Positions 5,027 to 44,060 of a stretch of DNA of 54,488 nt are shown here, in pieces. The position numbers and the translations under genes are program-made. The notes beneath the pieces are model-generated. The model searched no databases, was not told where the DNA came from, and saw only the letters and a list, made by a program, of their open reading frames with translations. How positions within the stretch are numbered: position 1 is the first letter of the stretch; each line of letters opens with the position of its first letter. Source of the stretch: an uncultured Candidatus Saccharibacteria bacterium (GTDB taxonomy: Bacteria > Patescibacteriota > Minisyncoccia > Phycocordibacterales > Zambryskibacteraceae); contig CAYIKP010000002.1 of the NCBI GenBank assembly GCA_964364225.1, positions 1-54,488 of the forward strand. Reading direction: 5' to 3'.

Positions 5027-5076
5027 ACACACTCGGTGTTAGTCCTCTAGCAGGCTCCTATTTGGAGAAATAGACC

Positions 5077-5736: not shown

Positions 5737-5766
5737 TACTCTTGACCCTTGGGTGCCCTGGCACTT

Positions 5767-6148: not shown

Positions 6149-6159
6149 TAAGGCTATTT

Positions 6160-14659: not shown

Positions 14660-14671
14660 AATGAATCCCGT

Positions 14672-29616: not shown

Positions 29617-30009
29617 ATGAACGAAGAAAATTCAGTAGTGGTGCCAGAAAAATTTCAGAAGATTGTTTCAGAAATCGAAAAGATGTCTGTGATTGATTTA
29701 AACGAACTTGTGAAGGTGTTTGAAGCAAAGTTTGGAGTTTCAGCTACAGCAGTAGCGGCCCCTTCGACAGGCTCAGGGCAAGTAGCCGAAGAAGAAAAAT
29801 CTTCTTTTGCAGTTGAGCTTACTGATAGCGGTGCAAATAAAATTGCAGTTATCAAGGTAATTAAGGAGGTTTTGGCACTAGGCTTGAAAGAAGCAAAAGA
29901 TCTAGTGGACGCTGCTCCTTCAGTACTTAAGCCAGACATGAAAAAGGAAGAAGCAGATGCCTTCAAAGCTAAAATTGAAGAAGCCGGAGGAAAAGTTACC
30001 TTAAAGTAA
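29617..30009 (+). CDS. rplL: 50S ribosomal protein L7/L12
   Basis: Ala-rich hinge, VIKVIKEVLALGLKEAKDLVD and EEAGGKVTLK at the C-terminus. Confidence 0.95.
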   Translation: MNEENSVVVPEKFQKIVSEIEKMSVIDLNELVKVFEAKFGVSATAVAAPSTGSGQVAEEEKSSFAVELTDSGANKIAVIKVIKEVLALGLKEAKDLVDAAPSVLKPDMKKEEADAFKAKIEEAGGKVTLK

Positions 30010-30043
30010 CTTTTCTGGAGGTCCTGAACTTGTTGAAGGGCAA

Positions 30044-30067
30044 GGAGGTAAAGTTACACTTAAATAA
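30044..30067 (+). repeat. second copy of the rplL 3' end (GGKVTLK-stop)
   Basis: gga ggt aaa gtt aca ctt aaa taa against gga gga aaa gtt acc tta aag taa at 29986-30009. Differences are synonymous and the frame differs. Confidence 0.75.
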
Positions 30068-30172
30068 GCGAAGCTTTTTAAGGAACTTTACAGCCGGAGC
30101 GATGTTTCGCTAGCAAAGCGAAACTGCGAGGCGGGGACGCGGAAATTTCTGAGCGACGGCGAAGAAATTATC

Positions 30173-30196
30173 TGTGGAAAAGTAACACTCAAATAA
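30173..30196 (+). repeat. third copy of the rplL 3' end (CGKVTLK-stop)
   Basis: tgt gga aaa gta aca ctc aaa taa, in the same frame as copy 2. The frame stays open between the copy 2 stop and this stop. Confidence 0.7.
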
Positions 30197-30213
30197 ACTA
30201 AGTTTGTTTGAAG

Positions 30214-30252
30214 AACGAAGCCGCCGCGCATATTGCGCGGCGGCTTCGTTTT
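30214..30252. terminator. strong bidirectional terminator
   Basis: aacgaagccgccgcgca-tat-tgcgcggcggcttcgtt then tt, between rplL (+) and 30251..30541 (-). Confidence 0.8.
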
Positions 30253-30541
30253 AACTGTTCCTACTAACCATTACATAAAGTGTAAACATCGCGGTTAGGA
30301 ATATAAACAGATCATTGACTGCAAATCTGTCTATATAAACCTTAAAACCACGAGTCAGTATTCGAAACAACATCATGACGGCTGTGACAAATATCACATT
30401 CTCAAACAGAAAGTCGTAGGTCGTTTTTGGGGATGTCCATTTCAAGAGCATCAAGACTAAGAAGTAAAAACAACCAAAAACTATTCCTGCTGATGCCTGT
30501 GCTAGCACCTCAGTGGTTTCACTTGGCTTTTTATTGGCCAC
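30251..30541 (-). CDS. small polytopic membrane protein
   Basis: 96 aa with three hydrophobic helices. Confidence 0.45.
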   Translation of the reverse strand: MANKKPSETTEVLAQASAGIVFGCFYFLVLMLLKWTSPKTTYDFLFENVIFVTAVMMLFRILTRGFKVYIDRFAVNDLFIFLTAMFTLYVMVSRNS

Positions 30542-30662
30542 GATTGCTCCAGAGTGAGTTCTGTTTGTTTTATAACAGATTTAATTTTTTTGTCAATAAA
30601 TTTTCTTGTTTTATATACAGAGCTTGCATACATTTTTAATATGATTAAAATCCGCAGTATAT

Positions 30663-31301
30663 ATGTCAGATGTAATTCTAGAGAAGCTATTTGGTGGTGA
30701 AGCTACAGTAAAAGTACTTCGTTTGTTTCTTTTTAATGAAAACCTCGCTCTTACCCAAGAGGAAATTGCCTCAAAGGTACACACAAACTTTGAATGGACA
30801 AAAAACGCTATTGATTACCTCGAAAAACTTGGTTTTTTTAAAAAAAGGAGTGGTTTTAGGGATTTTCCTATAAAAAATGGCAAAAAAGGACATAAAACTG
30901 TAAAAAAAAGAATGGCTGTATGGCTGGTAAACCCAAACTTTCCCATGACAGATGCATTGAGACAATTTTTTCACAGAGCAAATATCGTTTCCCCAAAAGA
31001 AGTTATTTCAAAACTTTCCAGTACTGGTAATTTGAAATTGATAACAATTTCAGGAATGTTTTTAGAAGATAATGAAGCAAGACTAGATCTTTTAGTTGTT
31101 GGTGATAATTTAAAAAAAGCGTCTTTTGATAAAGGAGTTGGTGCAATTGAAGCGCTTTTAGGAAGGGAAATTCGCTACGCTACATTTGAAACTCCTGAAT
31201 TTTTATATAGATACGGCATGTATGACCGCCTCGTTAGAGATGTTTTTGACTACAAACACGAGAAAATACTCAACAAGCTAGCCGTTTTTGGAGAAAATTA
31301 A
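30663..31301 (+). CDS. putative winged-helix DNA-binding protein
   Basis: The N-terminal 60 aa (VKVLRLFLFNENLALTQEEIASKV...AIDYLEKLGF) look like a wHTH. The C-terminal domain is unknown. Confidence 0.45.
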   Translation: MSDVILEKLFGGEATVKVLRLFLFNENLALTQEEIASKVHTNFEWTKNAIDYLEKLGFFKKRSGFRDFPIKNGKKGHKTVKKRMAVWLVNPNFPMTDALRQFFHRANIVSPKEVISKLSSTGNLKLITISGMFLEDNEARLDLLVVGDNLKKASFDKGVGAIEALLGREIRYATFETPEFLYRYGMYDRLVRDVFDYKHEKILNKLAVFGEN

Positions 31302-31414
31302 ACTTTTTATTGTTGTCCACAATAAATCCCCTAATTCAAAACATATGGCTCATTGAAGCGGTATAATTTGGGGTAGGGTCTCAAAAATTATTAAAATAAA
31401 CATAAGTTAACAAT

Positions 31415-32101
31415 ATGTTAGTGCAGACATGGGGTGATGTTTTAACAACATCTTTCCAAGATGTGTGGATGGGAGTTGCAAGGTTTTTACCAAATCTTGT
31501 TGTTGCCATTATCATTGTAATCTTGGGATGGCTCATCGGTTCAGTTATTGGTAAAGCGATATGGCAAATTTTCCGTTCTATTCGCGTAGATGAAGCTCTT
31601 AGAAAAACAGGAGCAGAAGATTTGATGAGAAAGGGCGGTATGACTCTTAATTCAGGTGGCTTTATTGGTGGCCTTATTAAGTGGTTCATTATCGTAGTCT
31701 TCTTTATCGCAGCATTTGAAGTTTTGGGTCTTTCACAGGTAAACGCCTTCCTTTCACAGGTGGTATTGGGATACCTTCCACAAGTTATTGTGGCAGTTCT
31801 AGTACTTCTAGTGGCAGGGGTGGTGGGTGATGTTGTTCAGAAAATCGTCAACACTTCAGCTCGTGCAGCAGAAATTCGTTCTGCTCATACATTAGGCACA
31901 TTGTCACGATGGGCTATTTGGATTTTCGGTCTTTTGGTGGCTCTAAGCCAACTAGGAATAGGAGTTCAAATTATCCAGACCCTATTTATGGGAGTTGTAG
32001 TTGCTTTGTCTCTTGCTTTTGGCCTTTCATTTGGCTTGGGCGGACAAGAAGCTGCTTCTCAATGGATAAGCAAGGCTCGTGATGAAATGCAAGGTCGATA
32101 G
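31415..32101 (+). CDS. membrane protein with conserved-TM-helix repeats (mechanosensitive-channel-associated type)
   Basis: Repeated units of the type LPNLVVAIIIVILGWLIG..., YLPQVIVAVLVLLVAG and LSRWAIWIFGLLVALSQLG. Confidence 0.5.
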   Translation: MLVQTWGDVLTTSFQDVWMGVARFLPNLVVAIIIVILGWLIGSVIGKAIWQIFRSIRVDEALRKTGAEDLMRKGGMTLNSGGFIGGLIKWFIIVVFFIAAFEVLGLSQVNAFLSQVVLGYLPQVIVAVLVLLVAGVVGDVVQKIVNTSARAAEIRSAHTLGTLSRWAIWIFGLLVALSQLGIGVQIIQTLFMGVVVALSLAFGLSFGLGGQEAASQWISKARDEMQGR

Positions 32102-32152
32102 TCTTTAAAAAAGACCAGAGCGATCTCGCATACAGGTATCCGGAGAAAACAG

Positions 32153-32177
32153 AAAAACACCCGAAAGGGTGTTTTTC
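32153..32177 (+). terminator. intrinsic terminator
   Basis: aaaaacaccc-gaaa-gggtgttttt. Confidence 0.75.
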
Positions 32178-32191
32178 TGTTGGTAGGTTGC

Positions 32192-32311
32192 TCCCGTACG
32201 AAACAGGTTGCGATCACTAAGATAGTTTCTAATATAAGTTTAAATTTAGCCCTTATTTATGAAGCATAAGTTTAGCTTATTTATAAACTGCGACCGCGGT
32301 TTCGTTCGGGA
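32192..32311. repeat. CCCGTACGAA...TTCGTTCGGG inverted-termini element, copy A
   Basis: 5' arm tcccgtacgaaacaggttgcga and 3' arm ctgcgaccgcggtttcgttcggga, with an AT-rich interior. Flanked by ttgc on both sides. Confidence 0.7.
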
Positions 32312-32481
32312 TTGCAATTTTTATGTCTGCCTGTATTATATTCAAACCACCTTTGTGGCTTTTTTCTTTCTGTATCTTAGCCATTTGGGGAAGTTAGTGC
32401 GTTTTGTCTATTCAAGCTCTCGCGCGATAGACTAAGCGCGTTAAAATTAGCATCTAATATTAAACTTAATAATTTATTAAC

Positions 32482-33678
32482 ATGGCAGATTTTGATCGTT
32501 CAAAACCACACGTTAACGTAGGTACAATTGGCCACGTTGACCACGGTAAAACAACCTTGACCGCCGCTATCTTGAAATGTCTTGATAGACAAGGTGATGG
32601 CTACAGCGCAAAAGTTGTAGGCATTGATGGTATTGATAAAGCACCTGAAGAAAAAGCTCGCGGTATTACAATCGCACTTTCTCACAACGAATACGCAACG
32701 CCAACTCGTCACTATGCTCACATTGACGCTCCAGGACACGCTGACTACATCAAGAACATGATTACTGGTGCAGCTCAAATGGATGGTGCGGTTTTGGTGG
32801 TAGCAGCAACTGATGGAGTGATGCCACAAACTCGTGAACACATTCTTCTTGCTCGCCAAGTTGGTGTGCCTAAGGTCTTAGTTTTCCTTAACAAATGCGA
32901 TATGGTTCCTGATAAAGAACTTATCGATTTAGTTGAAGAAGAAGTACGTGAGCTTTTGACCAAGCAAGGTTATGACGGCGCAAACGCTCCTATTATTCGT
33001 GGTTCAGGACTTAAAGCGTTGGAGTCAGCATCAAATGATGATGAATGGGCAAAGAAAATCTTAGAGCTTGTAAATGCTCTTGATACTTACATTCCAATTC
33101 CTGAAAGAGAGATAGATAAACCATTTCTTATGCCCATTGAGGACATCTTCTCAATTGAAGGCCGTGGAACTGTAGCAACAGGAAGAATTGAAAGAGGAAA
33201 GTTAAAGGTTGGTGAAGAAATTGAAATTGTTGGATTAAAAGATACAGCGAAGACAACTGTTACTGGTATTGAAATGTTCAACAAGAATCTTCAAGAGGGT
33301 ATGGCAGGAGACAACGCAGGTATTCTACTCCGCGGTACAAAGAAGGAAGATCTTACTCGTGGACAAGTGTTAGCAAAAACTGGCTCTGTAACCCCTCACA
33401 CAGAATTTGAAGCAGAAGTATACATTTTGAAGAAAGAGGAAGGTGGTCGCCACACTCCATTCTTCTCTGGATACAAGCCTCAGTTCTATGTAAGAACGAC
33501 AGACGTAACAGGAGAAGTTACACTAGCAGCAGGCGTTGAGATGGTAATGCCAGGAGACACAGTTACCTTTAAGGTAAAACTTGTTGCCCCAGTTGCACTT
33601 GAAGAGAAACAAAGATTTGCTATCCGTGAGGGTGGAAAGACAGTAGGTGCGGGTGTTGTTACAAAAATCGTAGCTTAA
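32482..33678 (+). CDS. tuf: elongation factor Tu
   Basis: [17 protein letters not shown] and NKCD motifs; 398 aa. Confidence 0.96.
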
Positions 33679-33696
33679 GAAAAATAAGTTCCTTAC

Positions 33697-34065
33697 ATGG
33701 CACCAAAAGCAAAAAAAGCAGAAACACCAAAAAAATCCTCCAAAAAAGAGGAGGTAGTAGTATCGCGCCTAAGAATTCGTGTACGCGCGTACGAAAACAA
33801 AATTTTGGATGTCTCGGTAAAGCAAATCATTGATACGGCTTTACGCTTTGACGCTGTTGTTGCGGGACCAATACCTTTGCCAACTGAGTTCAAAAAATAC
33901 ACAGTTAATCGTTCGGCCTTCGTCTACAAAAATGCGCGAGAGCAGTTTGAGATGAGGATTCACAAGAGATTAATTGATATTTTGAACCCAACACCAAAAT
34001 TGATTGAATCTTTGACCAATCTTTCTCTTCCTTCGGGAGTGATGATTGACGTTAAGATCGTGTAG
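33697..34065 (+). CDS. rpsJ: 30S ribosomal protein S10 (about 20-aa Lys-rich N-terminal extension)
   Basis: LRIRVRAYENKILD...GPIPLPTE...HKRLIDI core preceded by MAPKAKKAETPKKSSKKEE. Confidence 0.92.
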   Translation: MAPKAKKAETPKKSSKKEEVVVSRLRIRVRAYENKILDVSVKQIIDTALRFDAVVAGPIPLPTEFKKYTVNRSAFVYKNAREQFEMRIHKRLIDILNPTPKLIESLTNLSLPSGVMIDVKIV

Positions 34066-34088
34066 CTTGAAAGTTTAGTGTGACTTAA

Positions 34089-34119
34089 GAAATTTTGCGG
34101 AGTATTTCCGCAAAATTTC
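34089..34119 (+). promoter_or_regulatory. 13-bp perfect hairpin between rpsJ and rplC
   Basis: gaaattttgcgga-gtatt-tccgcaaaatttc with no T-run, 11 nt upstream of the rplC ATG. Confidence 0.55.
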
Positions 34120-34130
34120 GCATCAATAAA

Positions 34131-34751
34131 ATGAAATTTATTCTGGGAGAAAAAAAGGAAATGACACAGATCTTCGACAATGACGGTCATGTTCAACCTG
34201 CAACAATAATTGTCGCTACCCCCATGACAGTTACACAAGTAAAATCTTCTATTACAAAAGATGGTTATGACGCTATCCAAGTTGGTGCCGGTGAAAGAAA
34301 AGCAAAAAATATTTCTAAAGCGGTAAAGGGGCACACAAAAGAACTTGGTAATTTCAAAACTCTAAAAGAGTTCAAAGGAAAAAAAGGAGAAGTTTTAGAT
34401 TTTGCGAAAGGCGCAAAAATTGATGTTTCTGCTTTCTCTGTAGGAGACTCTGTGAGAGTTACATCAATAACTAAAGGAAAAGGTTTTCAAGGAGTTGTAA
34501 AAAGACACGGTTTCCATGGTGGTCCACGTTCACACGGCCAGAAACACTCAGAGAGAGAGCCGGGTTCTATTGGAGGCGGTCTTCGTTCAAAAGTGCCTAA
34601 AGGAAAAAGGATGGCTGGCAGAATGGGGGGCGTTAATGCTACCGTGATGAACCTAAAAGTTCTACAAATAATTCTTGAAACCAATGAAATTCTTGTTCGT
34701 GGCGCAGTGCCAGGTCGTAGGGGAACCATGGTAGAAATCAGAGGAATGTAG
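34131..34751 (+). CDS. rplC: 50S ribosomal protein L3
   Basis: MKFILGEKKEMTQIFD start, KGKGFQGVVKRHGF and GPRSHG motifs. Ends in TAG. Confidence 0.94.
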   Translation: MKFILGEKKEMTQIFDNDGHVQPATIIVATPMTVTQVKSSITKDGYDAIQVGAGERKAKNISKAVKGHTKELGNFKTLKEFKGKKGEVLDFAKGAKIDVSAFSVGDSVRVTSITKGKGFQGVVKRHGFHGGPRSHGQKHSEREPGSIGGGLRSKVPKGKRMAGRMGGVNATVMNLKVLQIILETNEILVRGAVPGRRGTMVEIRGM

Positions 34752-34873
34752 TCCCGTACGAAGCCGCGGTCGCAGTAAAGACCAAAGCAAAATCAAAGCA
34801 ATGGAAACACAAATTAAAAAACAAGATAACGAAGAGAATGTACCTAACAGACCGCGACCTGCTTCGTTCGGGA
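34752..34873. repeat. CCCGTACGAA...TTCGTTCGGG inverted-termini element, copy B (fills the rplC|rplD junction)
   Basis: 5' arm tcccgtacgaagccgcggtcgcag starts the base after the rplC stop. The 3' arm gaccgcgacctgcttcgttcggga ends on the A of the ATG at 34873. Confidence 0.75.
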
Positions 34874-35640
34874 TGGAAACATCTGTATACACAAAAGAAG
34901 GAAAGGAAGCACGAAAAATTGCAATGCCAGTTAAGCTTTTTGGCGCAAGAAAAAATGCTGACTTAGTACACCAAGTAGTTGTTTCCCAGACATCATCTGC
35001 TCGCTCAAATATCGCCCACACAAAAACTCGTGGAGATGTATCTGGAGGAGGCAAAAAGCCATGGCAACAAAAGGGAACAGGGCGTGCTCGCCACGGCTCC
35101 ACACGTTCTCCTATATGGGTTGGTGGAGGTGTTGCTCATGGACCAAGAAACGACAAAAACTATTTCAGAAAAGTTAATAAGAAAATGAAGGTCGCTGCAC
35201 TGGTTAATGTGCTATCACAAAAAGTAAAAGCAAACGAAATTATTTTGGTAGAAAATTTTGCATTAGCCGGCAAGACTCGTGATGGCATGGCTGTTATAAA
35301 AGCACTTTCTAAGGGAACAAAAATGACCGGTTTGGTTGGAAAGAAAGAAAATGCAGGATACATTTTATTTGCAGTTAAAAACCCCCTTACAGAAAGGGCG
35401 TTAAGAAACATCGGTAACATTTCAGTAGGTGAAACAAGAAACTTGGATATTGTTTCGGCCCTTAAATATAAATACATAGTGTTCGTTGATCCAGAAAAAT
35501 CATTTGAAATTTTGAATGCAAAGTTCGGTGAATCAAAAGTTGTAGAAACTACAGAAAAAGAATTAAAGCCAAGGCCAAAACCAAAGGCAAAAAAAGCAGT
35601 CAAAAAAGCCATAAAAAAGTCTGCCAAAGCAAAGAAATAG
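34873..35640 (+). CDS. rplD: 50S ribosomal protein L4 (possible upstream in-frame start at 34801)
   Basis: METSVYTKEG... aligns with L4 N-termini. GGGKKPWQQKGTGRARHGS motif and a Lys-rich C-terminal tail are present. Confidence 0.92.
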   Translation: METSVYTKEGKEARKIAMPVKLFGARKNADLVHQVVVSQTSSARSNIAHTKTRGDVSGGGKKPWQQKGTGRARHGSTRSPIWVGGGVAHGPRNDKNYFRKVNKKMKVAALVNVLSQKVKANEIILVENFALAGKTRDGMAVIKALSKGTKMTGLVGKKENAGYILFAVKNPLTERALRNIGNISVGETRNLDIVSALKYKYIVFVDPEKSFEILNAKFGESKVVETTEKELKPRPKPKAKKAVKKAIKKSAKAKK

Positions 35641-35641
35641 C

Positions 35642-35938
35642 ATGAAAAAGAAACTAAACACAAGTACAGATATTTTTACACTAAAATCTCCTCGTATTAC
35701 AGAGAAGGCCTCTATGCTTCAAGAGAAGAATGTTTTTGTGTTTAATGTACCTCTCACAGCCACAAAAAGAAGTGTAGCGAAGGCGGTTGAAGCTCAATAC
35801 AAAGTACATCCCGTGAAAGTAAATATGGTTAGGGTATTAGCAAAAAACGTTATTGTAAGAAACAAAGCAGGAAAAACCAATCGTGGTAAAAAAGCTTATG
35901 TGTTTTTGAAAAAAGGAGAAACCATAAAGTTGGTATAA
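35642..35938 (+). CDS. rplW: 50S ribosomal protein L23
   Basis: PRITEKAS...VFVFNV...KKAYVFLKKGE pattern. Confidence 0.93.
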   Translation: MKKKLNTSTDIFTLKSPRITEKASMLQEKNVFVFNVPLTATKRSVAKAVEAQYKVHPVKVNMVRVLAKNVIVRNKAGKTNRGKKAYVFLKKGETIKLV

Positions 35939-35948
35939 GAATAATTAT

Positions 35949-36791
35949 ATGAAAAAATTTAAACCAACAACAAAATCTCGTAGACACATGACAGTCCTTC
36001 CTTTCAAGGACAACATAACTACAAATGAGCCGGAAAAATCTTTAACAAGTGGATTTAGAAGGGGAACTGGCAGAAACCACCATGGCCGTGTCACTGTTCA
36101 GCACAAAGGTGGCGGGCACAAGCGCCTTTTCAGAGATATAGATTTTTCATATGATAAATTTGATATTCCTTATACATTAAAATCTGTTGAATACGATCCA
36201 AACAGAACTGGATACATTGGTTTGGTTTTCTATAAAGATGGTGCAAAGCGTTATGTTTTGATTCCTCGTTCTGTAAAAGTGGGAGACACGTTTATGACTT
36301 CAGAGAATGCCCCTGAAACTCCTGGAAATAGACTTCCACTACACAAACTTACTGTAGGAACATTTATCTATAACATTTCTCTTAAAAAGGATGGTGTTGC
36401 GAAGATTGCTCGTTCAGCAGGATCGTATGCTGAAGTGGTAGCTAAAGATGGTGATTGGGTAGACATAAAAATGCCATCAACTGAAATTAGAAAAATTCAC
36501 AAAAATGCGTGGGCAACAGTAGGTGAAGTTTCAAATCCAGAAAATCGACTAGTTAATCTCGGAAAAGCAGGTCGCTCAAGATGGCTTGGTATTCGTCCAA
36601 CAGTTCGTGGAACTGCCATGAACCCTGTAGACCACCCACACGGCGGAGGTGAAGGAAGACAAGGAAGAGGGCACCGTCGAGCAAGAACTCGTCATGGCAA
36701 GCCAACGGGCAAGGGTCAGAAGTCTCGCCGTGCAAAGAAATACTCAAATGTTTTCTTGGTTTCAAGAAGAAGAGTAGGAAAGAAAAAGTAA
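35949..36791 (+). CDS. rplB: 50S ribosomal protein L2
   Basis: HKGGGHKR, GTAMNPVDHPHGGGEGR motifs. Confidence 0.96.
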   Translation: MKKFKPTTKSRRHMTVLPFKDNITTNEPEKSLTSGFRRGTGRNHHGRVTVQHKGGGHKRLFRDIDFSYDKFDIPYTLKSVEYDPNRTGYIGLVFYKDGAKRYVLIPRSVKVGDTFMTSENAPETPGNRLPLHKLTVGTFIYNISLKKDGVAKIARSAGSYAEVVAKDGDWVDIKMPSTEIRKIHKNAWATVGEVSNPENRLVNLGKAGRSRWLGIRPTVRGTAMNPVDHPHGGGEGRQGRGHRRARTRHGKPTGKGQKSRRAKKYSNVFLVSRRRVGKKK

Positions 36792-36884
36792 TAAAGAGTA
36801 GCTTGGTATTTTTCAGCCCAACTACCGCTAAATAAATTTCAAAATTATAGTCGCTTCATTTAACGGAAAATTCAAAACTTCCAG

Positions 36885-36916
36885 AAAAAACACTCCAGTA
36901 TGCTGGAGTGTTTTTT
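36885..36916 (+). terminator. intrinsic terminator inside the S10 cluster (after rplB)
   Basis: aaaaaacactccag-tatg-ctggagtgtttttt. Confidence 0.75.
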
Positions 36917-36918
36917 CT

Positions 36919-37341
36919 GTGTTTGAACAGTTGAATTTTCCTATTTCGCTCGTTAATTTTGGAATTTATCACGCGAGGGCTGAAAAATACCAAGCTACTC
37001 TTTATAGAGAGAGAAAGAGGGCAAATAATGGCTCAACAGTGGTGTTTGCTGGCATCAACCTACTTATTGCGGTTGCGCTCACCGTCTACGGTGGGGCAAA
37101 ACTGCAAGGTAGCATTGGGGTCGGCATCGCTGCTGGCGTTATCGGTGCTGTGGGCCTTACGGCTTTCAACCTGATGCTCTCGAAGTCAAAACCGACAGAG
37201 GTTGGCTCACTTTTCGTTCTCATGGTCATGGCTCAAATCGCGGTTCCCGCGGTTTACCAAATGGTCATGTCGGGCGACGTGTCACTCAAGAAGGTTGCGG
37301 GTTTTCTTGCAGCATTCGCTGCCACCGTGCTTCTCGGCTGA
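36919..37341 (+). CDS. hypothetical membrane protein (high-GC cassette, start uncertain)
   Basis: Three predicted TM helices (INLLIAVALTVYGG, IAAGVIGAVGLTAF, VAGFLAAFAATVLL). A sample line hand-counts to about 60% GC. Candidate starts are GTG 36919, TTG 36931 and GTG 37039. Confidence 0.5.
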   Translation: MFEQLNFPISLVNFGIYHARAEKYQATLYRERKRANNGSTVVFAGINLLIAVALTVYGGAKLQGSIGVGIAAGVIGAVGLTAFNLMLSKSKPTEVGSLFVLMVMAQIAVPAVYQMVMSGDVSLKKVAGFLAAFAATVLLG

Positions 37342-37360
37342 ACCCATTCAAGGAGTGGTT

Positions 37361-37597
37361 GTGAGACAGCTTGAACCAAGAATTGGTAGGACTATCGAAG
37401 ATGCAGCCAAGTCGGCAGTTGCACTGGCTCGCAAGCACACGTGCCCAGTTAGGGTGAAGTTCAATCATGTTACGATGATCGTAGTACCCAGCGATACCCC
37501 GAAGTCCGTAGAGAGGTATTACGGGCTTGCGTCGTTGGTGGACAGCAAGCACATCCGATTCCTCGCTAAGTGGGTCAACACGAGGCCCAAGCGTTAG
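37361..37597 (+). CDS. hypothetical 78-aa protein (high-GC cassette)
   Basis: GTG start 5 nt after AAGGAG, 17 nt after the stop of the preceding ORF. Followed by a 13-bp terminator. Confidence 0.5.
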   Translation: MRQLEPRIGRTIEDAAKSAVALARKHTCPVRVKFNHVTMIVVPSDTPKSVERYYGLASLVDSKHIRFLAKWVNTRPKR

Positions 37598-37630
37598 TAG
37601 TAGTTCTGTTGGTACGAACACGTCGTGTAT

Positions 37631-37664
37631 AAAGGGGCGAAACGCTTGCGTTTCGCCCCTTTCT
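37631..37664 (+). terminator. intrinsic terminator
   Basis: aggggcgaaacgc-tt-gcgtttcgcccct then ttct. Confidence 0.7.
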
Positions 37665-37719
37665 GCTATAGTATTTCGCCAAGCTCTTACCGAGCTTTTT
37701 CGTTTCAAAGGGAAGAAAA

Positions 37720-38064
37720 ATGACAAGATCATCTCACAAAGGTCCATATGTTTACGAAAAACTCCTAAAGAAAATAGGAGGAAAAAAGCCCGCAGAAGCT
37801 GGGGTTATTAAAACATGGGCAAGGGCATCTCAAATTGCTCCTGAAATGGTGGGCTTCACCTTTGGAGTACACAATGGAAAAGATCACATTGAGGTTTTTG
37901 TTACAGAAGATATGGTCGGTCACAGATTGGGAGAATTTTCACCAACTCGTAAGTTTATTAAACACGGAGGAAAGATGCAGAAGGAATTAGAAATGGCCAA
38001 GAAACAAGCTGAAATAACAGCTGCTCAATCTGCAAAATCAGCCCCTGACGCTAAGAAGAAATAA
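37720..38064 (+). CDS. rpsS: 30S ribosomal protein S19 (C-terminal tail)
   Basis: [40 protein letters not shown] motifs. Confidence 0.94.
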
Positions 38065-38075
38065 TTTTTAATACC

Positions 38076-38453
38076 ATGGCGGAATCTAAGGCAGTTTTAA
38101 AAAGTTTGAGACTCTCTCCTCGCAAAGTCCGTACTGTGGTTTCTTTAGTAAAAGGAAAGTCCGTAAGTGATGCATTTAACATTCTAGATTACGCAGTGAA
38201 GCGTTCTGCTCTTCCTGTAAAGAAACTTTTAATATCAGCTGTTGCTAACGCTAAATCCCAAGGCTTAAAAGAGGATGGTCTATATATAAAAGATATAAGA
38301 GTTGATCAAGCACAGACATTGAAAAGAACTCGCCCTGCTTCTCGTGGTTCTGCTCACCCAATAAAGAAGCGCTCTTCCCACATTATGGTAGTTTTAGCCA
38401 CTGAGAATCCTAAACCTAATAAAAAGGTTAAGATAAAAAAAGCTAAAGAATAA
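38076..38453 (+). CDS. rplV: 50S ribosomal protein L22
   Basis: LRLSPRKVRTVVSLVKGKSV and RPASRGSAHPIKKRSSHI motifs. Confidence 0.94.
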   Translation: MAESKAVLKSLRLSPRKVRTVVSLVKGKSVSDAFNILDYAVKRSALPVKKLLISAVANAKSQGLKEDGLYIKDIRVDQAQTLKRTRPASRGSAHPIKKRSSHIMVVLATENPKPNKKVKIKKAKE

Positions 38454-38454
38454 T

Positions 38455-39141
38455 ATGTCACACACAGTCCACCCATATTCACATAGACTAGGCATCATAA
38501 GAGATTGGAAATCTCGCTGGTTTGCTACAAAGAAAAATTATCCGAATACTTTGCGTGGAGATTTAATAATTAGAAATTTTATAGATAAAAAACTTCGTGG
38601 CTCATATATTGCAGACGTTCAGATTGAGAGATCAGAAAAAGCACTAAGAATTATTTTAGAGACATCTCGCCCAGGAGTAATTATCGGCAGATCTGGAGAT
38701 GGTACAAATAAAATCAAAGAAGAAATTTCAAAACTTTTAAGAGAGAAAGGTCTTTTGGGCAAAGTGGAAGTAAAGCTAGACATCAAAGAAATTAAGTCTC
38801 CAGAATCAAACGCTATGATTGTGGCTCAAATGGTGGCTGAGGGCCTTGAGAAGCGCCTTCCATACAGAAGAGTTCAAAAGCAAATGGTTGAGAAGGTTAT
38901 GGCAAACAGAGATGTTAAGGGAATAAAAATCACAATTGGCGGTCGTTTAGCTGGCTCTTCAATTGCTCGTTCTGAAACAAGAAAGCTTGGAAGAATTCCT
39001 CTTCAAACAATGAGAGCCGACATTGATTACGCTCACTACGAAGCAAAGCTGGCTTATGGAAAGCTTGGCATTAAAGTATGGATTTATAAGGGCGACATTT
39101 TTGCTAACGATTTAACCAATAGTTCAACGAATTCAATATAA
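38455..39141 (+). CDS. rpsC: 30S ribosomal protein S3
   Basis: HPYSHRLGI, KH domain RPGVIIGRSG, GRLAGSSIARSE motifs. Confidence 0.95.
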   Translation: MSHTVHPYSHRLGIIRDWKSRWFATKKNYPNTLRGDLIIRNFIDKKLRGSYIADVQIERSEKALRIILETSRPGVIIGRSGDGTNKIKEEISKLLREKGLLGKVEVKLDIKEIKSPESNAMIVAQMVAEGLEKRLPYRRVQKQMVEKVMANRDVKGIKITIGGRLAGSSIARSETRKLGRIPLQTMRADIDYAHYEAKLAYGKLGIKVWIYKGDIFANDLTNSSTNSI

Positions 39142-39146
39142 ATAAC

Positions 39147-39566
39147 ATGTTGGTACCAAAGAAAGTAAAATACAGAAAGTGGCATGTGATGCGCAGAAAC
39201 CCAAAGAGAGTGGGTGTGGCTTCACGCGGAACTGAAGTTAATTTTGGACAATTTGGTTTGAAAGCAACTACTGCTCACCGTGTGCGTTCAAACCAAATTG
39301 AGGCAGCAAGAAAGGCAATTTCTAAAGCAGTAGGTAAGACAGGAAAAGTTTGGATTCGTATATTTCCAGATATGCCTTATACTCAAAAGCCTGCAGAGGT
39401 GAAAATGGGTAAGGGAAAGGGAGATATTCAGGGCTACCATGTAGAAGTATGGCCCGGCAGAGTTATTTTTGAAGTAGATGGAGTAACGCCTGAAGTTGCA
39501 AAAGAGGCATTAAGAAAGGGCGGTACAAAGCTTCCTCTAAAAACCAAGGTAGTAGAAAGACACTAG
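39147..39566 (+). CDS. rplP: 50S ribosomal protein L16
   Basis: MLVPKKVKYRK and KMGKGKGD motifs. Confidence 0.95.
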   Translation: MLVPKKVKYRKWHVMRRNPKRVGVASRGTEVNFGQFGLKATTAHRVRSNQIEAARKAISKAVGKTGKVWIRIFPDMPYTQKPAEVKMGKGKGDIQGYHVEVWPGRVIFEVDGVTPEVAKEALRKGGTKLPLKTKVVERH

Positions 39567-39600
39567 AAGATGAATATTGAATAAAGAATTATGAATAAAG
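39566..39600 (+). repeat. GAATNNN heptad array, half-element (no inverted partner)
   Basis: GAAGAT GAATATT GAATAAA GAATTAT GAATAAA spans the rplP|rpmC spacer and the rpmC ATG. Confidence 0.6.
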
Positions 39601-39794
39601 AGTTAAAGAAAAAAACAACTGATGATTTAATGAAAGACCTTAGAGATAAAAGGGAGGGCCTAAGAGCTTTTCGTTTTGCTATTCAAGGATCAAAAACAAG
39701 AAATGTTAAAGAAGGAAAAATGTTAAGAAAAGAAATTGCCCAAACTTTAACTGAACTCAATTCACGAAATAATAGTTCGACAGGTTCACTATAA
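39591..39794 (+). CDS. rpmC: 50S ribosomal protein L29
   Basis: 67 aa; pattern LRDKREGLRAFRF...KEIAQTLTEL and operon position. Confidence 0.9.
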   Translation: MNKELKKKTTDDLMKDLRDKREGLRAFRFAIQGSKTRNVKEGKMLRKEIAQTLTELNSRNNSSTGSL

Positions 39795-39800
39795 AATAAT

Positions 39801-40040
39801 ATGGAAAAGAAATCTAAAAAAAGAATTTTGAAGGGGGTGGTGGTGTCAAATAAAATGAAAGATACGGTTGTTGTGGCTGTAAAAAATTTCAAAAAGCATC
39901 CACAATATGGAAAATATATTTCTACTACCAAAAAATACAAAGCCCATGATGCAGGAAATACAAAAATAGTAGGGGACAAGGTGGAAATAATTGAATGTCG
40001 TCCGATTTCTAAAACTAAGCACTTCATGATAGTCTCTTAA
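39801..40040 (+). CDS. rpsQ: 30S ribosomal protein S17
   Basis: KGVVVSNKMKDTVVVAV...HPQYGKY...VEIIECRPISKTKHF. Confidence 0.94.
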   Translation: MEKKSKKRILKGVVVSNKMKDTVVVAVKNFKKHPQYGKYISTTKKYKAHDAGNTKIVGDKVEIIECRPISKTKHFMIVS

Positions 40041-40050
40041 TCTCAATAAC

Positions 40051-40422
40051 ATGATCCAACCACGCTCAATAGTAAAAGTAGCAGATAACTCAGGCGCCAA
40101 AATAGCGAGAGTTTTCAAAGTACTAGGCTCTTCAAAAAAGCGCTACGCAATGATAGGCGATATTTGTGTTCTTTCAGTACAAAAAGCAGAGCCAAGAAAG
40201 CCTGTTAAAAAGAAGGATGTGGTTTATGGAGTAGTAGCAAGATCAAAGGTGGCTACAAGACGCGCTGACGGTTCCTATATTCGTTTTGATGAGAATGCAG
40301 TTATTTTGGTAGATAAAACAAAGCACGAGCCAATTGCAGGACGTGTGTTCGGGCCAATACCAAGAGAATTAGGAGAGAAAGGTTTTCAATCAATAATTTC
40401 TCTTGCTCCCGAAGTTGTATAG
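40051..40422 (+). CDS. rplN: 50S ribosomal protein L14
   Basis: MIQPRSIVKVADNSGAK and GPIPRELGEKGF motifs. Confidence 0.96.
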   Translation: MIQPRSIVKVADNSGAKIARVFKVLGSSKKRYAMIGDICVLSVQKAEPRKPVKKKDVVYGVVARSKVATRRADGSYIRFDENAVILVDKTKHEPIAGRVFGPIPRELGEKGFQSIISLAPEVV

Positions 40423-40441
40423 ACAGCTTGTATAAAAATAT

Positions 40442-40747
40442 ATGAAAATTAAAAAAGGAGACAACGTAATAGTAATTTCGGGAAAAGATAAGGGCAAAAC
40501 CGGTGCTGTTGTTAGAGCTTTTCCTAAAGAAAACAGGGTTTTGGTGGAAGGGGTAAACATTAAATTTATTCACAAGAAACCAGGAAAAAATATTCAAAAA
40601 GGTCAAAAAATTGAAAAAGCCCTACCGGTACACATTTCAAATGTGATGATAGTAGACCCAAAAACAAAAAAACCAACGAGAGTAAAGTTTTCTATGGAAA
40701 AAGGAAAAAAACTTAGAATAAGTTCTAAGAGCGGAACAAAAATATAA
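40442..40747 (+). CDS. rplX: 50S ribosomal protein L24
   Basis: KIKKGDNVIVISGKDKGKTG KOW motif. Confidence 0.94.
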   Translation: MKIKKGDNVIVISGKDKGKTGAVVRAFPKENRVLVEGVNIKFIHKKPGKNIQKGQKIEKALPVHISNVMIVDPKTKKPTRVKFSMEKGKKLRISSKSGTKI

Positions 40748-40768
40748 TGGTTCAATAAATTCACCACA

Positions 40769-41305
40769 ATGACAAATCCTATTAGAGAAAAACAAAATAT
40801 GGCTTTTGAGAAAATGAAAGGACGATTTCATTACAAAAATACTATGCAGGCCCCAAAACTCATGAAGGTTGTTATTTCTGTTGGAGTTGGCTCGTTTAGA
40901 GATAAAAATAAAATAAAAATTGTTCTCGATCGTTTAGCAAAAATTACTGGACAGAAAGCGGTTGAAAGAGGAGCCAAGCAATCCATTGCGACGTTCAAGA
41001 CGCGCCAAGGGGACGTTATTGGCCTACAAGTTACTCTTAGGGGTTCAAGGATGAATGATTTTATAGAGAAGCTTATTCATATCGCCCTTCCACGTACCAA
41101 AGACTTTAGGGGAGTCCCTAAAACTTCAGTAGACGATATGGGAAATCTTACTATGGGCATTAAGGAGCATACGATTTTCCCAGAAACTGCAGACGAAGAA
41201 TTGAAAGATGTTTTTGGCCTTGCAATTACACTTGTTTCCACGGCTAAGAATAAGGCGGAAGCACAAGAATTCTTCTCTATATTAGGTATTCCTTTTAAGG
41301 CCTAA
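40769..41305 (+). CDS. rplE: 50S ribosomal protein L5
   Basis: MQAPKLMKVVISVGVG, LPRTKDFRG, GIKEHTIFPE motifs. Confidence 0.95.
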   Translation: MTNPIREKQNMAFEKMKGRFHYKNTMQAPKLMKVVISVGVGSFRDKNKIKIVLDRLAKITGQKAVERGAKQSIATFKTRQGDVIGLQVTLRGSRMNDFIEKLIHIALPRTKDFRGVPKTSVDDMGNLTMGIKEHTIFPETADEELKDVFGLAITLVSTAKNKAEAQEFFSILGIPFKA

Positions 41306-41374
41306 AAAGGCTTGCTTTGTGGCTTTTTCTCATATAAAATCTCGGAACGCTCTTAAGGAGCTTTTTTGTTAAAT

Positions 41375-41560
41375 ATGGCTAAAAAGTCTGTAATCGCTAG
41401 ATCACAAAAAACACCTAAGTTCTCTACTAGGGCTGTTAATCGCTGTTTTAGGTGCGGAAGAAAGAGGGGGTTTATGCGAGATTTCGGACTTTGCAGAATA
41501 TGCTTTAGAGAATTAGCAAATGAAGGTAAAATCCCAGGAGTTAAAAAATCATCATGGTAA
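41375..41560 (+). CDS. rpsN: 30S ribosomal protein S14 (61-aa zinc type)
   Basis: [46 protein letters not shown] with a CxxC...CxxC pattern. AAGGAG lies 14 nt upstream. Confidence 0.94.
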
Positions 41561-41946
41561 GCGACAGAATTGGAGATATGTTAAATAGGTTGAAGAATGC
41601 AGGCGCTGTAGGCCATAAGTCTGTTTCCGTGCCTTATTCTCGTCTAAATCTAGAAATCCTAAAGCTGTTGGCTGAATATGGTTTTATAGTTTCTTTTGAA
41701 AAGAATGCCGAGAAGGTAACAAATTTTATTGATGTTGTTCTTGCCTATAAAAACGACAAACCTCGTATAAGAGGAATTGAGCGTGTTTCAAAACAATCAA
41801 GAAGGGTTTACAAGGCGGTTAAGGATATAAGACGCGTAAAGGAGGGTTATGGAATGGAAGTTATTTCTACACCAAAAGGTTTGAAGACTGATAGCGAAGC
41901 AAAAAAAGAAAAGGTCGGAGGGGAGGCTCTATTTAGAATTTGGTAG
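41554..41946 (+). CDS. rpsH: 30S ribosomal protein S8
   Basis: [13 protein letters not shown] and GGEALFRIW at the C-terminus. Confidence 0.95.
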
Positions 41947-41975
41947 TTCAATCTGTTTGATATAAATAATAAAAA

Positions 41976-42509
41976 ATGTCTAGAATTGCAAAAAAAGGAA
42001 TAAAAATACCACAGGGCACAAGTGTTTCTGTGTCAGGGAATGCAGTTTTAGTTAAGGGTCCACAAGGCGAATTGTCTAGAAATTTTTCTCCAACAATAAG
42101 CCTCACCATTATTGATGATATGGTTATGTTTGAAAACAAATCTGGCTCATTGGAATCTAAGGCAGCTCTCGGCACCATTGCAGCTCACCTAAAAAATATG
42201 GTTAGTGGTGTTAATAATAAGTTTTCAAAAAAGCTTATCCTTGAAGGAATAGGTTATAAAATGGAATCCCAAGGAGATAAAATAAAATTTGCTCTAGGTT
42301 TTTCTCACCCAGTAATTGTTGAAATACCAAAAGGAATTACTGTTGAAATAGAAAAAGCCAACCTAATTGTTTCTGGAATTAACAAAGATGATGTGGGTGA
42401 ATTTGCCGCTCGCATTCGTGATTTTAAAAAACCAGAGCCATATAAGGGAAAAGGTTTTAGATATGCAGATGAAATTATAAAACGTAAGCAGGGCAAGAAA
42501 TCGGTATAA
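41976..42509 (+). CDS. rplF: 50S ribosomal protein L6
   Basis: MSRIAKKGIKIP, PEPYKGKGFRY motifs. Confidence 0.95.
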   Translation: MSRIAKKGIKIPQGTSVSVSGNAVLVKGPQGELSRNFSPTISLTIIDDMVMFENKSGSLESKAALGTIAAHLKNMVSGVNNKFSKKLILEGIGYKMESQGDKIKFALGFSHPVIVEIPKGITVEIEKANLIVSGINKDDVGEFAARIRDFKKPEPYKGKGFRYADEIIKRKQGKKSV

Positions 42510-42511
42510 AC

Positions 42512-42865
42512 ATGAAATCAATTCCCGCAAAAAAAACAGCCAAGAGACAAAGAAGACACGCTCGTATCAGAGCTAAGGTTATTGGTGATTCTCTCAGGCC
42601 TCGTCTAGCTATTTACAAATCAAACAAATTTATTTGGGCGCAGATTATTGATGATACTAAAGGTGTTACAATTGCTTCCTCAACAACAAAAAATGTGAAA
42701 GGGAAGACAGAGACAGAGCGTGCTCATATAGCGGGTGGGGCAATAGCAAAACTTGCTGTTGCAAAAGGAATAAAGTCCATCGTTTTTGATAGAGGGGGCT
42801 TTATATACACTGGTCGAGTTCGTGCTTTTGCAGATGGAGCAAGAGAGGGTGGATTAACTTTTTAA
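42512..42865 (+). CDS. rplR: 50S ribosomal protein L18
   Basis: RRHARIRAKV, LAIYKSNKFIWAQIIDD, FDRGGFIYTGRVRAFADGAREGGL motifs. Confidence 0.95.
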   Translation: MKSIPAKKTAKRQRRHARIRAKVIGDSLRPRLAIYKSNKFIWAQIIDDTKGVTIASSTTKNVKGKTETERAHIAGGAIAKLAVAKGIKSIVFDRGGFIYTGRVRAFADGAREGGLTF

Positions 42866-42870
42866 TACAC

Positions 42871-43617
42871 TTGCCCCGTACGAAACAGCGGGAAACACAA
42901 AAAATTAAAATGACAAAGGATGAAATAAAAAATACAGAAAACGAAATTCAGGAAGGAGTTATTGCGCCGACTGTTTCGTTTGGGGTGGACGAAAATACAA
43001 TAAAAACAACAGATATAGTAGCTGATGTAGTTCCGACCCATTCTGAGGCCGTGCCCGCTGAAGCTCCAAAAGCAGTTGCTCCAAAAGATACAAAAGACCA
43101 AAAAAATTACGAAAAAAATCCTCGTCGCAGTCGTCGTGGGGGGCCTCGTCGTGAGGAAAAAGTTAAAAGTGAATTTGATCATAGGCTAGTTGGCATAAGA
43201 AGAGTTTCAAGAACAGTTGCCGGAGGCCGTCGTTTTTCTTTTTCGGCACTTGTTGTGGTAGGGAATAGAAAAGGCAAAGTTGGGGTGGGGCAAGGTAAAT
43301 CAGGAGATACTCCTATTGCCATAGAAAAAGCTGTAAGAGATGCAAAGAAGCGTTTAATAACTGTTGAACTTACAAAAGAAGGACGCATTCCTCACGAAGT
43401 ACAAGCAAAGTATTCAAGCGCAATTGTGAAAATAATGCCAGCAAAAGGTAGAGGTATTTTGGCTGGTTCTGCAACGCGTTATGTATTGGAACTTGCTGGA
43501 GTTAAAGAAGTGAATGCAAAAATTCTTTCTGGTTCAAAAAATGCTTTAAATATTTCAAAAGCAACAATAAAAGCACTACAAATGCTGACCGGTGCGGAAA
43601 AAGTAAATAAAAAATAA
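42871..43617 (+). CDS. rpsE: 30S ribosomal protein S5 with long N-terminal extension (start uncertain: 42871 TTG, 42910 ATG or 42985 GTG)
   Basis: The conserved core starts at FDHRLVGIRRVSRTVAGGRRFSFSALVVVGN. The preceding 90 codons are K/E/A/P-rich and partly encoded by repeat copy C. Confidence 0.9.
   Translation: MPRTKQRETQKIKMTKDEIKNTENEIQEGVIAPTVSFGVDENTIKTTDIVADVVPTHSEAVPAEAPKAVAPKDTKDQKNYEKNPRRSRRGGPRREEKVKSEFDHRLVGIRRVSRTVAGGRRFSFSALVVVGNRKGKVGVGQGKSGDTPIAIEKAVRDAKKRLITVELTKEGRIPHEVQAKYSSAIVKIMPAKGRGILAGSATRYVLELAGVKEVNAKILSGSKNALNISKATIKALQMLTGAEKVNKK
42874..42985. repeat. CCCGTACGAA...TTCGTTTGGGG inverted-termini element, copy C (fills the rplR|rpsE junction)
   Basis: 5' arm ccccgtacgaaacagcgg and 3' arm ccgactgtttcgtttgggg (15 bp pairable, with one T:T and one G:T). 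The interior shares ggaaacacaaa with copy B. Confidence 0.75.
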
Positions 43618-43621
43618 ACCC

Positions 43622-44056: not shown

Positions 44057-44060
44057 ACCA

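Follow-up and report, generated by a model that had tools for sequence, protein, structure and literature searches.

The three repeated elements present in the window (the whole stretch of DNA analysed, 54,488 nucleotides long) are probably non-autonomous, MITE-like members of a mobile-element family of the Patescibacteria (CPR), in which a cassette of about 275 bp encoding a GIY-YIG nuclease is the autonomous-looking form, and in which a hairpin and a regenerated start codon would allow the host gene to remain expressed. Cassette and miniature copies alike are placed, in a single orientation, precisely at the 5' boundary of open reading frames (ORFs), and their insertion duplicates 4-5 bp, typically (A)TGRA. 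Insertion leaves a relic start upstream of the element and a regenerated ATG flush with its 3' arm.

The window belongs to a 108-kb contig from 0.1-um-filtered Hainich groundwater; it is placed in the Patescibacteria (CPR) by its gene order, by the lack of L30 and by its relatives, and the host genome was analysed over these 54 kb. A sequence-only reading of this DNA had described three copies (A, B and C) of about 110-120 nt, with termini CCCGTACGAA...TTCGTTYGGG, at ribosomal gene junctions; it had missed both the GIY-YIG cassette and the exact, orientation-specific abutment on start codons. The features considered here are the following, in order of position:

14661-14665, + strand: relic pgk start ATGAA, the left target-site duplication (TSD) of the cassette; the right TSD is at 14941-14945.
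14667-14940, + strand: full-length cassette of 274 bp, the fourth copy, between tpiA and pgk, with termini matching those of the miniature copies.
14684-14944, + strand: GIY-YIG nuclease ORF of 86 aa; its TGA (14942-44) overlaps the pgk ATG (14941-43).
32188-32191, no strand: TTGC, left TSD of copy A; a single TTGC is found here in the relatives L250, L251, L253 and L255.
32192-32311, - strand: copy A, of the subfamily of B but inverted, with its canonical orientation on the minus strand.
32312-32315, no strand: TTGC, right TSD of copy A, which restores the predicted tuf -35 hexamer TTGCAA (32312-17).
34752-34872, + strand: copy B, a putative non-autonomous hairpin element, after the rplC TAG (34749-51) and before the rplD ATG (34873).
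42874-42984, + strand: copy C, a hairpin element, after the rplR TAA (42863-65); the native rpsE start is now GTG (42985).

The window contains three exact matches to CCCGTACGAA, all on the + strand (32193, 34753 and 42875), and TTCGTTYGGG lies 90-100 nt downstream of every one of them. When up to one mismatch to the motif was allowed, the window scan gave 7 matches where 1.3 were expected, a number that no shuffle out of 100 attained; two of the one-mismatch matches are explained by the cassette, whose arms are CCCGTATGAAAT / ATTTCATTCGGG (CCCGTATGAA/TTCATTCGGG). The fourth copy (14667-14940) lies beyond the reach of exact matching. On folding, A, B and C each form a long hairpin closed by its own two termini, with z values of -5.0, -4.2 and -3.3, respectively, each better than all 200 dinucleotide shuffles. 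The coordinates of the three copies and the pairing of their arms into a stem, as first proposed, were thus borne out, and the details given for the three junctions were all right.

Copy B (arms T-CCCGTACGAAGC... and ...GCTTCGTTCGGG) spans the whole gap from the base after the rplC TAG to the rplD ATG, in the canonical orientation relative to rplD, and its A-rich loop carries an in-frame ATG at 34801. Copy C, whose arms CCCCGTACGAAACAG and CTGTTTCGTTTGGGG form a G:U pair at stem position 4, begins 8 nt past the rplR TAA, and its end meets a GTG that is in frame (42985); its loop has an in-frame ATG at 42910. Copy A, flanked by TTGC on both sides, lies within the tuf promoter at its -35 box, in the interval that separates tuf from the terminator of an upstream mscS-like gene. 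According to Pfam, B is flanked by L3 and L4, C by L18 and S5, and A by the mscS-like gene and EF-Tu. The three copies can be aligned only in the termini and in a few subterminal bases, and their interiors are unlike. The segments reported as common to A and B (ccgcggtcgcag/ctgcgaccgcgg) and to B and C (ggaaacacaaa) are present. The inner-arm asymmetry of copy A is the mirror of the family pattern and the segment shared with B means that A belongs to the subfamily of B, in opposite orientation; the A/B segment is reverse-complementary because A is inverted relative to B in the inner arms.

Close relatives (L249-L255) have empty sites at all three window positions. In five syntenic relatives, at 74-85% nucleotide identity, the rplC-rplD gap measures 1-22 nt and the rplR-rpsE gap 4-23 nt. 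Around B, BLAST alignments break off inside rplC or where it ends (34752 in the case of L249, the closest) and begin again exactly at 34873, and those around A stop near 32176 and resume at 32311. Copy A has been inserted cleanly within the TTGC that is conserved in the predicted tuf -35 box, with the TTGC doubled, and no target duplication was recognisable at B or C in comparison with the relatives. The closest relative of all, L092 (90% identity), has both A and B. The comparison of the rplC-rplD and rplR-rpsE junctions among relatives, suggested in the sequence-only reading, therefore revealed presence/absence polymorphism. One MAG holds four identical composite copies at four loci, and tandem and nested insertions at a single start codon were also seen, which argues for recent mobility.

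A different explanation for B and C would be a cis-acting RNA of the ribosomal operon (an RNase III site, an attenuator or a coupling hairpin), kept by the host for regulation, as the first reading had also considered. It would account for the stable hairpins, for the position of B and C exactly between consecutive cistrons, for the covariation of the arms and for the similar elements found in other genera at rplC-rplD (with a different interior) and at rpsN-rpsH (laid out as stop codon plus T, element, ATG). We nevertheless consider it very improbable. Most copies adjoin non-ribosomal genes, the relatives at 74-85% nucleotide identity have no elements at the same junctions, target-site duplications flank copies, and the interiors are unrelated between copies. 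Copy A, moreover, lies upstream of the predicted (regenerated) tuf -35 box, which is followed by a predicted -10 box, TATTAT, at 32334-39. An Rfam 15 scan of the elements, which the sequence-only reading had suggested, gave no match at the gathering threshold, and with E up to 1 it returned only sub-threshold noise. The family is found at the starts of all kinds of genes, and the ribosomal-junction position is incidental. The elements are neither tied to ribosomal genes nor present in close relatives, and A is placed before the tuf -35 box; a dedicated ribosomal-operon RNA signal as the primary identity of the elements is already largely refuted.

The search for more copies that the sequence-only reading had recommended was performed with the pattern CCCGTACGAA-N(75-105)-TTCGTTYGGG, in one genome per species (at least 116 loci) and in metagenomes (at least 120 loci), and the results of the two scans were pooled. 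Copies are overall well over 200, almost all of them in Patescibacteria MAGs and groundwater contigs. The MAG labels among the matches listed are Nomurabacteria, Yanofskybacteria, Saccharibacteria, Doudnabacteria, Paceibacterota and others, and it is common for one MAG to have several loci. Matches in Streptomyces, Streptococcus and other non-CPR organisms miss the typical flanks and look like chance, and so do the 9 on viral contigs, none of which has an abutting gene start.

Concerning the position of the elements, among the matches listed 159 of 188 distinct elements flanked by T on the left and A on the right lie directly against the ATG of an ORF with 50 or more codons, and a further 8 of the 188 are interrupted by a contig end. 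Read along the gene, the architecture is ATGRAT, then CCCG(T/A)ACGAA ... TTCGTACGGG, then ATGRAN... and the rest of the gene, with a flank consensus of ATGRAT on the left and ATGRAN on the right. The fourth base of the relic is the same as that of the host start in all the copies (107/107) with a relic ATG 6 nt upstream (A/A 75, G/G 28, C/C 1 and T/T 3; Fisher 8e-26): the gene start is truly duplicated in the upstream hexamer, which does not belong to the element. Longer duplications were found too (ATGCAAT, ATGCCAAT), and the occurrence of non-ATG duplications (TTGC, TTAA, CCAA and TCAAC) indicates that the insertion chemistry is not strictly ATG-specific. The orientation of the element relative to the gene is fixed: asymmetric inner-arm pairs are CT in 70 copies, CC in 65 and GT in 56, and their mirror images are missing from the six commonest pairs listed at those positions.

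We also evaluated how far the target sequence itself may explain this association. The window contains 313 ATGRA sites, and ATGRA is the start of 11 of the 29 gene starts checked, so that an 85% association with starts needs either the targeting of initiation regions or a strong purging elsewhere. The enrichment at start codons could derive largely from a preference for ATGRA combined with the purging of harmful insertions.

The coding form of the family was first met in a fetched locus (L238), where a cassette of 276 bp has arms framing an ORF of 86 aa; used as a tblastn query, this ORF matched homologues in a dozen fetched loci as well as in the window, at 14684-14941. The order in the window is tpiA TAA, a, ATGAAT, CCCGTATGAAAT ... 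ATTTCATTCGGG, ATGAAG, with both neighbouring genes identified by Pfam, and the nuclease ORF continues across the 3' arm (...KRFLFHSG and stop). Compared with the miniature arms, those of the window cassette show a compensatory change from C-G to T-A, and the T:T is identical; the arms of this resident cassette and of the MITEs differ by one base pair. The layout is recurrent, with a relic start upstream, the arms around the ORF and the end of the ORF, always GGG/ATGA, on the host ATG, and the hosts vary: tpiA-pgk, dnaG-rpoD, secG-SBP (solute-binding protein), yqeY with a holin-like gene, and others. The fetched loci contain only GIY-YIG units of about 275 bp and a few bare arm hairpins, and no larger transposase framed by long TIR pairs was found among them.

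The cassette ORF matches PF01541 with 60.9 bits (Pfam cut-off 22.6, E 1.4e-16), and the motifs YxY...YxG...R..H are seen in its alignment to 1zg2. Its closest solved relatives are the UPF0213 proteins BH0048 (PDB 1zg2, E 4e-9) and EF2693 (1ywl), assigned by a phylogenomic survey of the superfamily to the bacterial Slx1 family, as minimal stand-alone GIY-YIG domains (PMC1564403). We detected 295 homologues of 85-130 aa, mostly 86 aa, to which the sources give Patescibacterial or generic names ('GIY-YIG nuclease family protein', 'putative endonuclease'). The longer homologues inspected are calls extended upstream, several of them from the relic ATG through the 5' arm ('MNPVRD...'), and without this upstream run into the 5' arm the homologues are of about 86 aa, that is the catalytic domain alone. 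The dN/dS of the nuclease is 0.09-0.22, indicating purifying selection; saturation of the synonymous sites was frequent. In eukaryotes Slx1 is a structure-specific nuclease, and the kinship may offer a lead as to how a nuclease without a DNA-binding domain could act on hairpin ends.

Homology between the interiors of A, B and C and that of the cassette was not significant (z mostly below 3), and the idea that the miniature interiors are deletion derivatives of the cassette found no support. The term 'cassette derivative' therefore rests on shared termini, architecture and co-occurrence, and, since the interiors are not significantly similar, we call A, B and C non-autonomous partners sharing the ends of the cassette. 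In the commonest miniature subfamily an apparent remnant of the nuclease N-terminus was noticed, an anecdotal observation. The elements measure less than about 300 bp and are bounded by terminal inverted repeats, and the miniature copies lack a transposase ORF; the elements make TSDs, occur as dispersed copies with presence/absence polymorphism, and have a coding element with the same termini. These are the traits of MITEs, and of the 'MITE/REP-like' element first suggested the MITE half is supported by the copies, the TSDs, the empty sites and the coding partner, while the affiliation to REP/RAYT was not sustained.

REP or REPIN sequences with a RAYT (HUH) transposase, or PATEs of the IS200/IS605 type, do resemble the elements in size and hairpin shape and in the many copies per genome, and the REPIN/RAYT system similarly consists of non-autonomous hairpins and of a single-gene element flanked by the same repeats, inverted. 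We regard such an origin as hardly credible, however, because the repeats enclose the gene of a GIY-YIG nuclease and not of a HUH enzyme, because the elements abut start codons instead of lying downstream of genes, and because they have target-site duplications, which IS200/IS605 elements are not known to produce. In the window and in the fetched loci no RAYT or TnpA gene framed by the repeats was found, the only framed ORF there being the GIY-YIG one.

The terminal stem of the elements measures 12-14 bp and their consensus is (A)T-CCCGTACGAA-RY ... RY-TTCGTACGGG-A(T). The ATG-proximal arm is nearly always TTCGTACGGG, the distal one is CCCGTACGAA or CCCGAACGAA, and the stem includes the A and the U of the regenerated AUG. 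The same T:T mismatch had been noted at first in each copy, and it is indeed present in all four window copies, but it does not extend to the family: a scan with W at both mismatch positions gave 68 T-A, 27 A:A, 26 T:T and 11 A-T, and the L092 orthologue of A has A:A. A conserved T:T mismatch is ruled out by these two results, and the pair counts indicate a perfect palindrome as the family consensus. Between the window and L092, both arm mismatch positions of copy A differ and the rest is collinear.

The arm core varies by lineage (ACGAA, ACAAA, ATGAA, TAGAG), and complementary arm lineages are CCCGTACAAAAT/ATTTTGTACGGG, CCCGTATGAAAT/ATTTCATTCGGG, CCCGAACAGAAC/GTTCTGTACGGG, CCCGTTAGAGAT/ATCTCTAACGGG and CCCACACATAAC.../...GTTATGTGTGGG. 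Since the arms are different across lineages and yet complementary, complementarity as such is maintained. In the miniature copies the 10-nt core was fixed by the search pattern, so that its conservation is partly circular; the pairs just inside the core covary, with 96 A-T and 64 G-C at position 11 and 146 T-A and 17 C-G at position 12. The cassettes, which were found by protein similarity, provide an unbiased view of arm variation. A strand comparison of G:U against A:C pairs gave 5 versus 0 at position 4 and A:C elsewhere, with few informative ungapped positions.

From these data a mechanism can be proposed for the movement of the elements and for their tolerance by the host. The nuclease would recognise the hairpin or cruciform into which the arms fold, and would cut the target at (A)TGRA with a stagger of 4-5 nt, with host repair as a possible helper in transposition. 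The nuclease would then be the mobilising enzyme, and a trans-acting factor encoded elsewhere is another possible agent. At the RNA level, the arms would pair in the mRNA and loop out the insert. In the full-length copies the nuclease ORF would be translated through the 3' arm up to a stop UGA overlapping the host AUG (AUGA), and termination-reinitiation would feed the host gene. In the miniature copies the stem, which would hide the A and the U of the AUG, may be opened by ribosomes that have initiated at the relic start or that terminate upstream: in promoter-proximal copies the relic start would send ribosomes straight into the 5' arm, and in copy B, whose 5' arm lies 1 nt past the rplC stop, the terminating ribosome would melt roughly the conserved 10-12 bp. 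Stem melting would in this way keep the downstream gene, which is SD-less, translated. An SD-like 4-mer was found at 1 of the 29 starts checked in the window, and, the genome being essentially SD-less there, initiation should require a start region that is open and A-rich. Under this model it is plausible that the hairpin takes part in the translational coupling of the downstream gene, by which the insertion would be rendered harmless.

For C, and possibly for B, the in-frame loop AUG may have been taken over as start codon, with about 25 residues added to S5 (and L4). In the case of C, considering the rplR stop 8 nt away and the decay of the native start, the loop ATG at 42910 may now be the start of S5; for B the loop ATG could equally be due to chance, because such fusions are found in only 18 of 164 copies. 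We also evaluated a more general version of this idea, that is, that B and C are exonised insertions with a coding function, extending L4 and S5 by 24-25 residues from the loop ATGs (34801 and 42910), and that the hairpin is irrelevant. Both loop ATGs are in frame, in an A-rich context like that of the normal starts of an SD-less genome, and gene callers choose them as starts. The start of S5 in relatives is ATG GAT GAA AAT, which has decayed to GTG GAC GAA AAT right after C, and in L026, of another genus, an element at the rplR-rpsE place of C is followed by GCG, with the loop-ATG frame also open. On the other hand GTG remains a valid start codon, and all close L4 homologues start at the methionine codon directly after B. 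Over the 24 codons of B, the window and L092 differ, by eye, in 2 synonymous and 2 non-synonymous changes. Considering all copies, in-frame loop ATGs are few, frame 0 is open through the element in 10 copies against 22 and 10 for the other frames, and most frames of the elements contain stop codons. We therefore judge exonisation to be rather unlikely as the explanation of B and C. The 18 of 164 copies and the lack of preference for frame 0 also led us to reject N-terminal fusion as a general solution.

It could also be supposed that the hairpin is an intervening sequence excised from the RNA, as in rRNA IVS or of the bulge-helix-bulge type, restoring the native start or producing a leaderless mRNA. 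The element is flush with the AUG, many relic starts lie 7-12 nt past a -10-like box, and in the rRNA genes of CPR bacteria non-intron GIY-YIG ORFs and short insertions are known, for which removal by RNase III is suspected (PMC11270868). Against this, no known ribozyme or intron signature was found in the elements, and the presence of both mismatch types and of several arm sequences means that no single conserved cleavage motif is evident. Joints skipping an element were absent from the DNA contigs examined; in one metatranscriptome run the matches corresponded to conserved tuf segments of other organisms, with depth 0 over the elements. RNA excision thus appears quite improbable, and a MITE-like element accompanied by a nuclease-bearing selfish cassette is the reading that we prefer.

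Several known systems are similar in part to this family. The Correia/NEMIS elements of Neisseria are of about 100-150 bp, with terminal inverted repeats, a short TSD and many copies, are co-transcribed and form long hairpins. The elements described here are likewise short, inverted-repeat, multicopy and hairpin-forming, and generate TSDs. However, the Correia/NEMIS termini are unrelated, their target is TA and their partner is an IS with a DDE transposase, whereas these elements are found on ATGRA at gene starts, in fixed orientation, with a 275-bp GIY-YIG cassette as partner. The seg genes of T4-like phages are free-standing GIY-YIG homing endonuclease genes, and they share with the cassette a small nuclease gene wedged between conserved genes, tight coupling to the downstream gene and selfish behaviour. 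The cassette differs in having an 86-aa catalytic domain alone, many unrelated genes as hosts, inverted-repeat ends, TSDs and ORF-less partners, none of which is a feature of homing. Homing genes of this type join the catalytic domain to a DNA-binding domain that recognises a long target in one conserved host gene, and they spread when a break is repaired from a homologous allele. The cassette does not behave as a classical homing endonuclease gene, considering the lack of a DNA-binding domain, the many unrelated host genes and the presence of inverted repeats and TSDs; the group-I-intron endonuclease model TIGR01453 scored 23 bits on the cassette ORF, with a cut-off of 56.

Rickettsia palindromic elements (RPEs) are short and palindromic, lie in frame inside ORFs and are translatable, and we know of no nuclease gene linked to them. 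The likeness consists in short palindromes in reduced genomes, and copy C may be a comparable coding case, but the elements of this family are at the ORF boundary and most of them contain stop codons. The Slx1-like/UPF0213 proteins (YhbQ-type; 1zg2, 1ywl) are the best sequence matches of the nuclease and have the minimal domain architecture in common with it. They have been described as single-copy, with a predicted role in repair (PMC1564403), whereas the cassette gene is framed by inverted repeats, occurs at variable loci and overlaps the start codons of its hosts. Concerning CPR bacteria, some insertions in rRNA genes encode GIY-YIG proteins, are neither introns nor homing-like, and stand among many short uncharacterised insertions (PMC11270868). 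The clade, the non-intron GIY-YIG ORF and the short ORF-less companions are the same as in this family, although those insertions lie in rRNA genes and these elements at the starts of protein genes; the likeness concerns these traits. Full-text searches of the literature found no description of the arms or of the combination of GIY-YIG, CPR, TIR, TSD and start codon.

A new class of transposable elements is a real possibility. In its most complete form, which we put forward tentatively and hold to be possible without favouring it, an 86-aa Slx1-like nuclease would act on its own hairpin ends, home to start sites in a fixed orientation and neutralise itself by start regeneration and hairpin coupling, colonising essential CPR operons and perhaps being also behind the GIY-YIG insertions of CPR rRNA genes.

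CPR/Patescibacteria have tiny, gene-dense genomes, and both their mobile DNA and their SD-less translation start, on which this element bears, are little known. The element lands on start codons even in the S10-spc region of ribosomal-protein operons, in genes that are evidently working. If our interpretation is true, it would explain a systematic mis-annotation of gene starts, with L4, S5 and nuclease calls extended into the element ('MNPVRD...'), and it would provide a compact module directed at start codons, a candidate genetic tool for otherwise intractable CPR bacteria. The catalogue of bacterial transposons, limited to our knowledge to DDE, HUH, serine, tyrosine and Cas1 enzymes, would gain a GIY-YIG-based element, and the many genes carrying a stable stem at their AUG would represent a natural experiment on how SD-less initiation faces such a structure.

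At other loci, in genomes and metagenomes beyond the window, copies of the start-codon-abutting hairpin elements are stacked in tandem at one start codon, with ATGAT between them (L045, ~2589-2830; L011, L031, L049 and L101; L167, 2205-2476), and in the same set of loci one element is also found nested within another, at an internal ATGCGT. A single Hainich MAG carries one composite element four times, and the copies are identical. Bare arm hairpins, with only a few bases between the two arms (e.g. CCCCGTACGAAGCTCTGCTTTCGTTCGGGG), were observed at L054 (~4525-4553), L057 (~2825-2853) and L210 (~2865-2901); these may represent either minimal elements or excision remnants.

Further repeats, hairpins and partial genes of the window are the following.

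Additional features of the window
1-55: 3' part of a tRNA gene (Rfam RF00005, 40 bits), the remainder cut off by the window start
5603-5726 and 6032-6155: 124-nt direct repeat, 82% identical, copies 429 nt apart
36791-37005: MITE-like unit 1, 215 bp, with a perfect 29-nt inverted repeat
50072-50258: MITE-like unit 2, 187 bp, with a perfect 26-nt inverted repeat
50842-50937: 96-nt hairpin with arms CCCGTTAGATA/TATCTAACGGG

In its arms the 96-nt hairpin is similar to one lineage of GIY-YIG nuclease cassette arms, 'SLTG' (CCCGTTAGAGAT); it may be a fifth, divergent member of the start-codon element family in the window. A TATAC repeat is present on its flanks, and it lies ~20 nt off the ATG of a minus-strand ORF, not flush with it.

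The 215-bp and 187-bp units, by comparison of their sequences, have interiors that are ~87% alike and lie in opposite orientation, while their terminal repeats differ from each other; they constitute a second MITE-like family, unrelated to the start-codon hairpin elements. The 215-bp unit begins directly at the rplB stop, and within it there is also a terminator-like hairpin. The spacing between rplB and rpsS amounts to ~930 bp (36792-37719) with no called gene and a raised GC of 0.44, and the ORFs of this gap had no match in Pfam. Since relatives also possess small unannotated ORFs at this position, but different ones, the gap looks like an insertion hot spot within the ribosomal protein operon. 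Elsewhere in the window, GC is locally high at 4001-6000 (0.48 vs ~0.37).

Upstream of tuf, a segment containing TAGTGCGTTTTGTCTATTCAAGCTCTCGCGCGATAGACTAAGCGCG (~32395-32450) is kept in all five relatives compared, while the spacer around it diverges. It includes the complementary stretches GTCTAT/ATAGAC and is possibly a structured leader; the segment had no match in Rfam.

Concerning gene starts, the host genome lacks Shine-Dalgarno sequences: an SD-like 4-mer was found upstream of only one of the 29 starts considered in the window (e.g. 29617-44061). The regions upstream of these starts are A/T-rich, and 11 of the 29 genes begin with ATGRA. The rpsE-rplO interval is without L30. Gene callers routinely prolong ORFs into the elements: in the window the calls for L4 and S5, the products of rplD and rpsE, begin at the loop ATGs at 34801 and 42910, and in nuclease homologues (P0082, P0083, P0021 and P0052) the call runs from the relic host ATG, the left target-duplication copy of the host start, across the 5' arm, giving an 'MNPVRD...' N-terminus. 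Such element-driven ORF extension is a systematic cause of wrong N-termini in CPR annotations.
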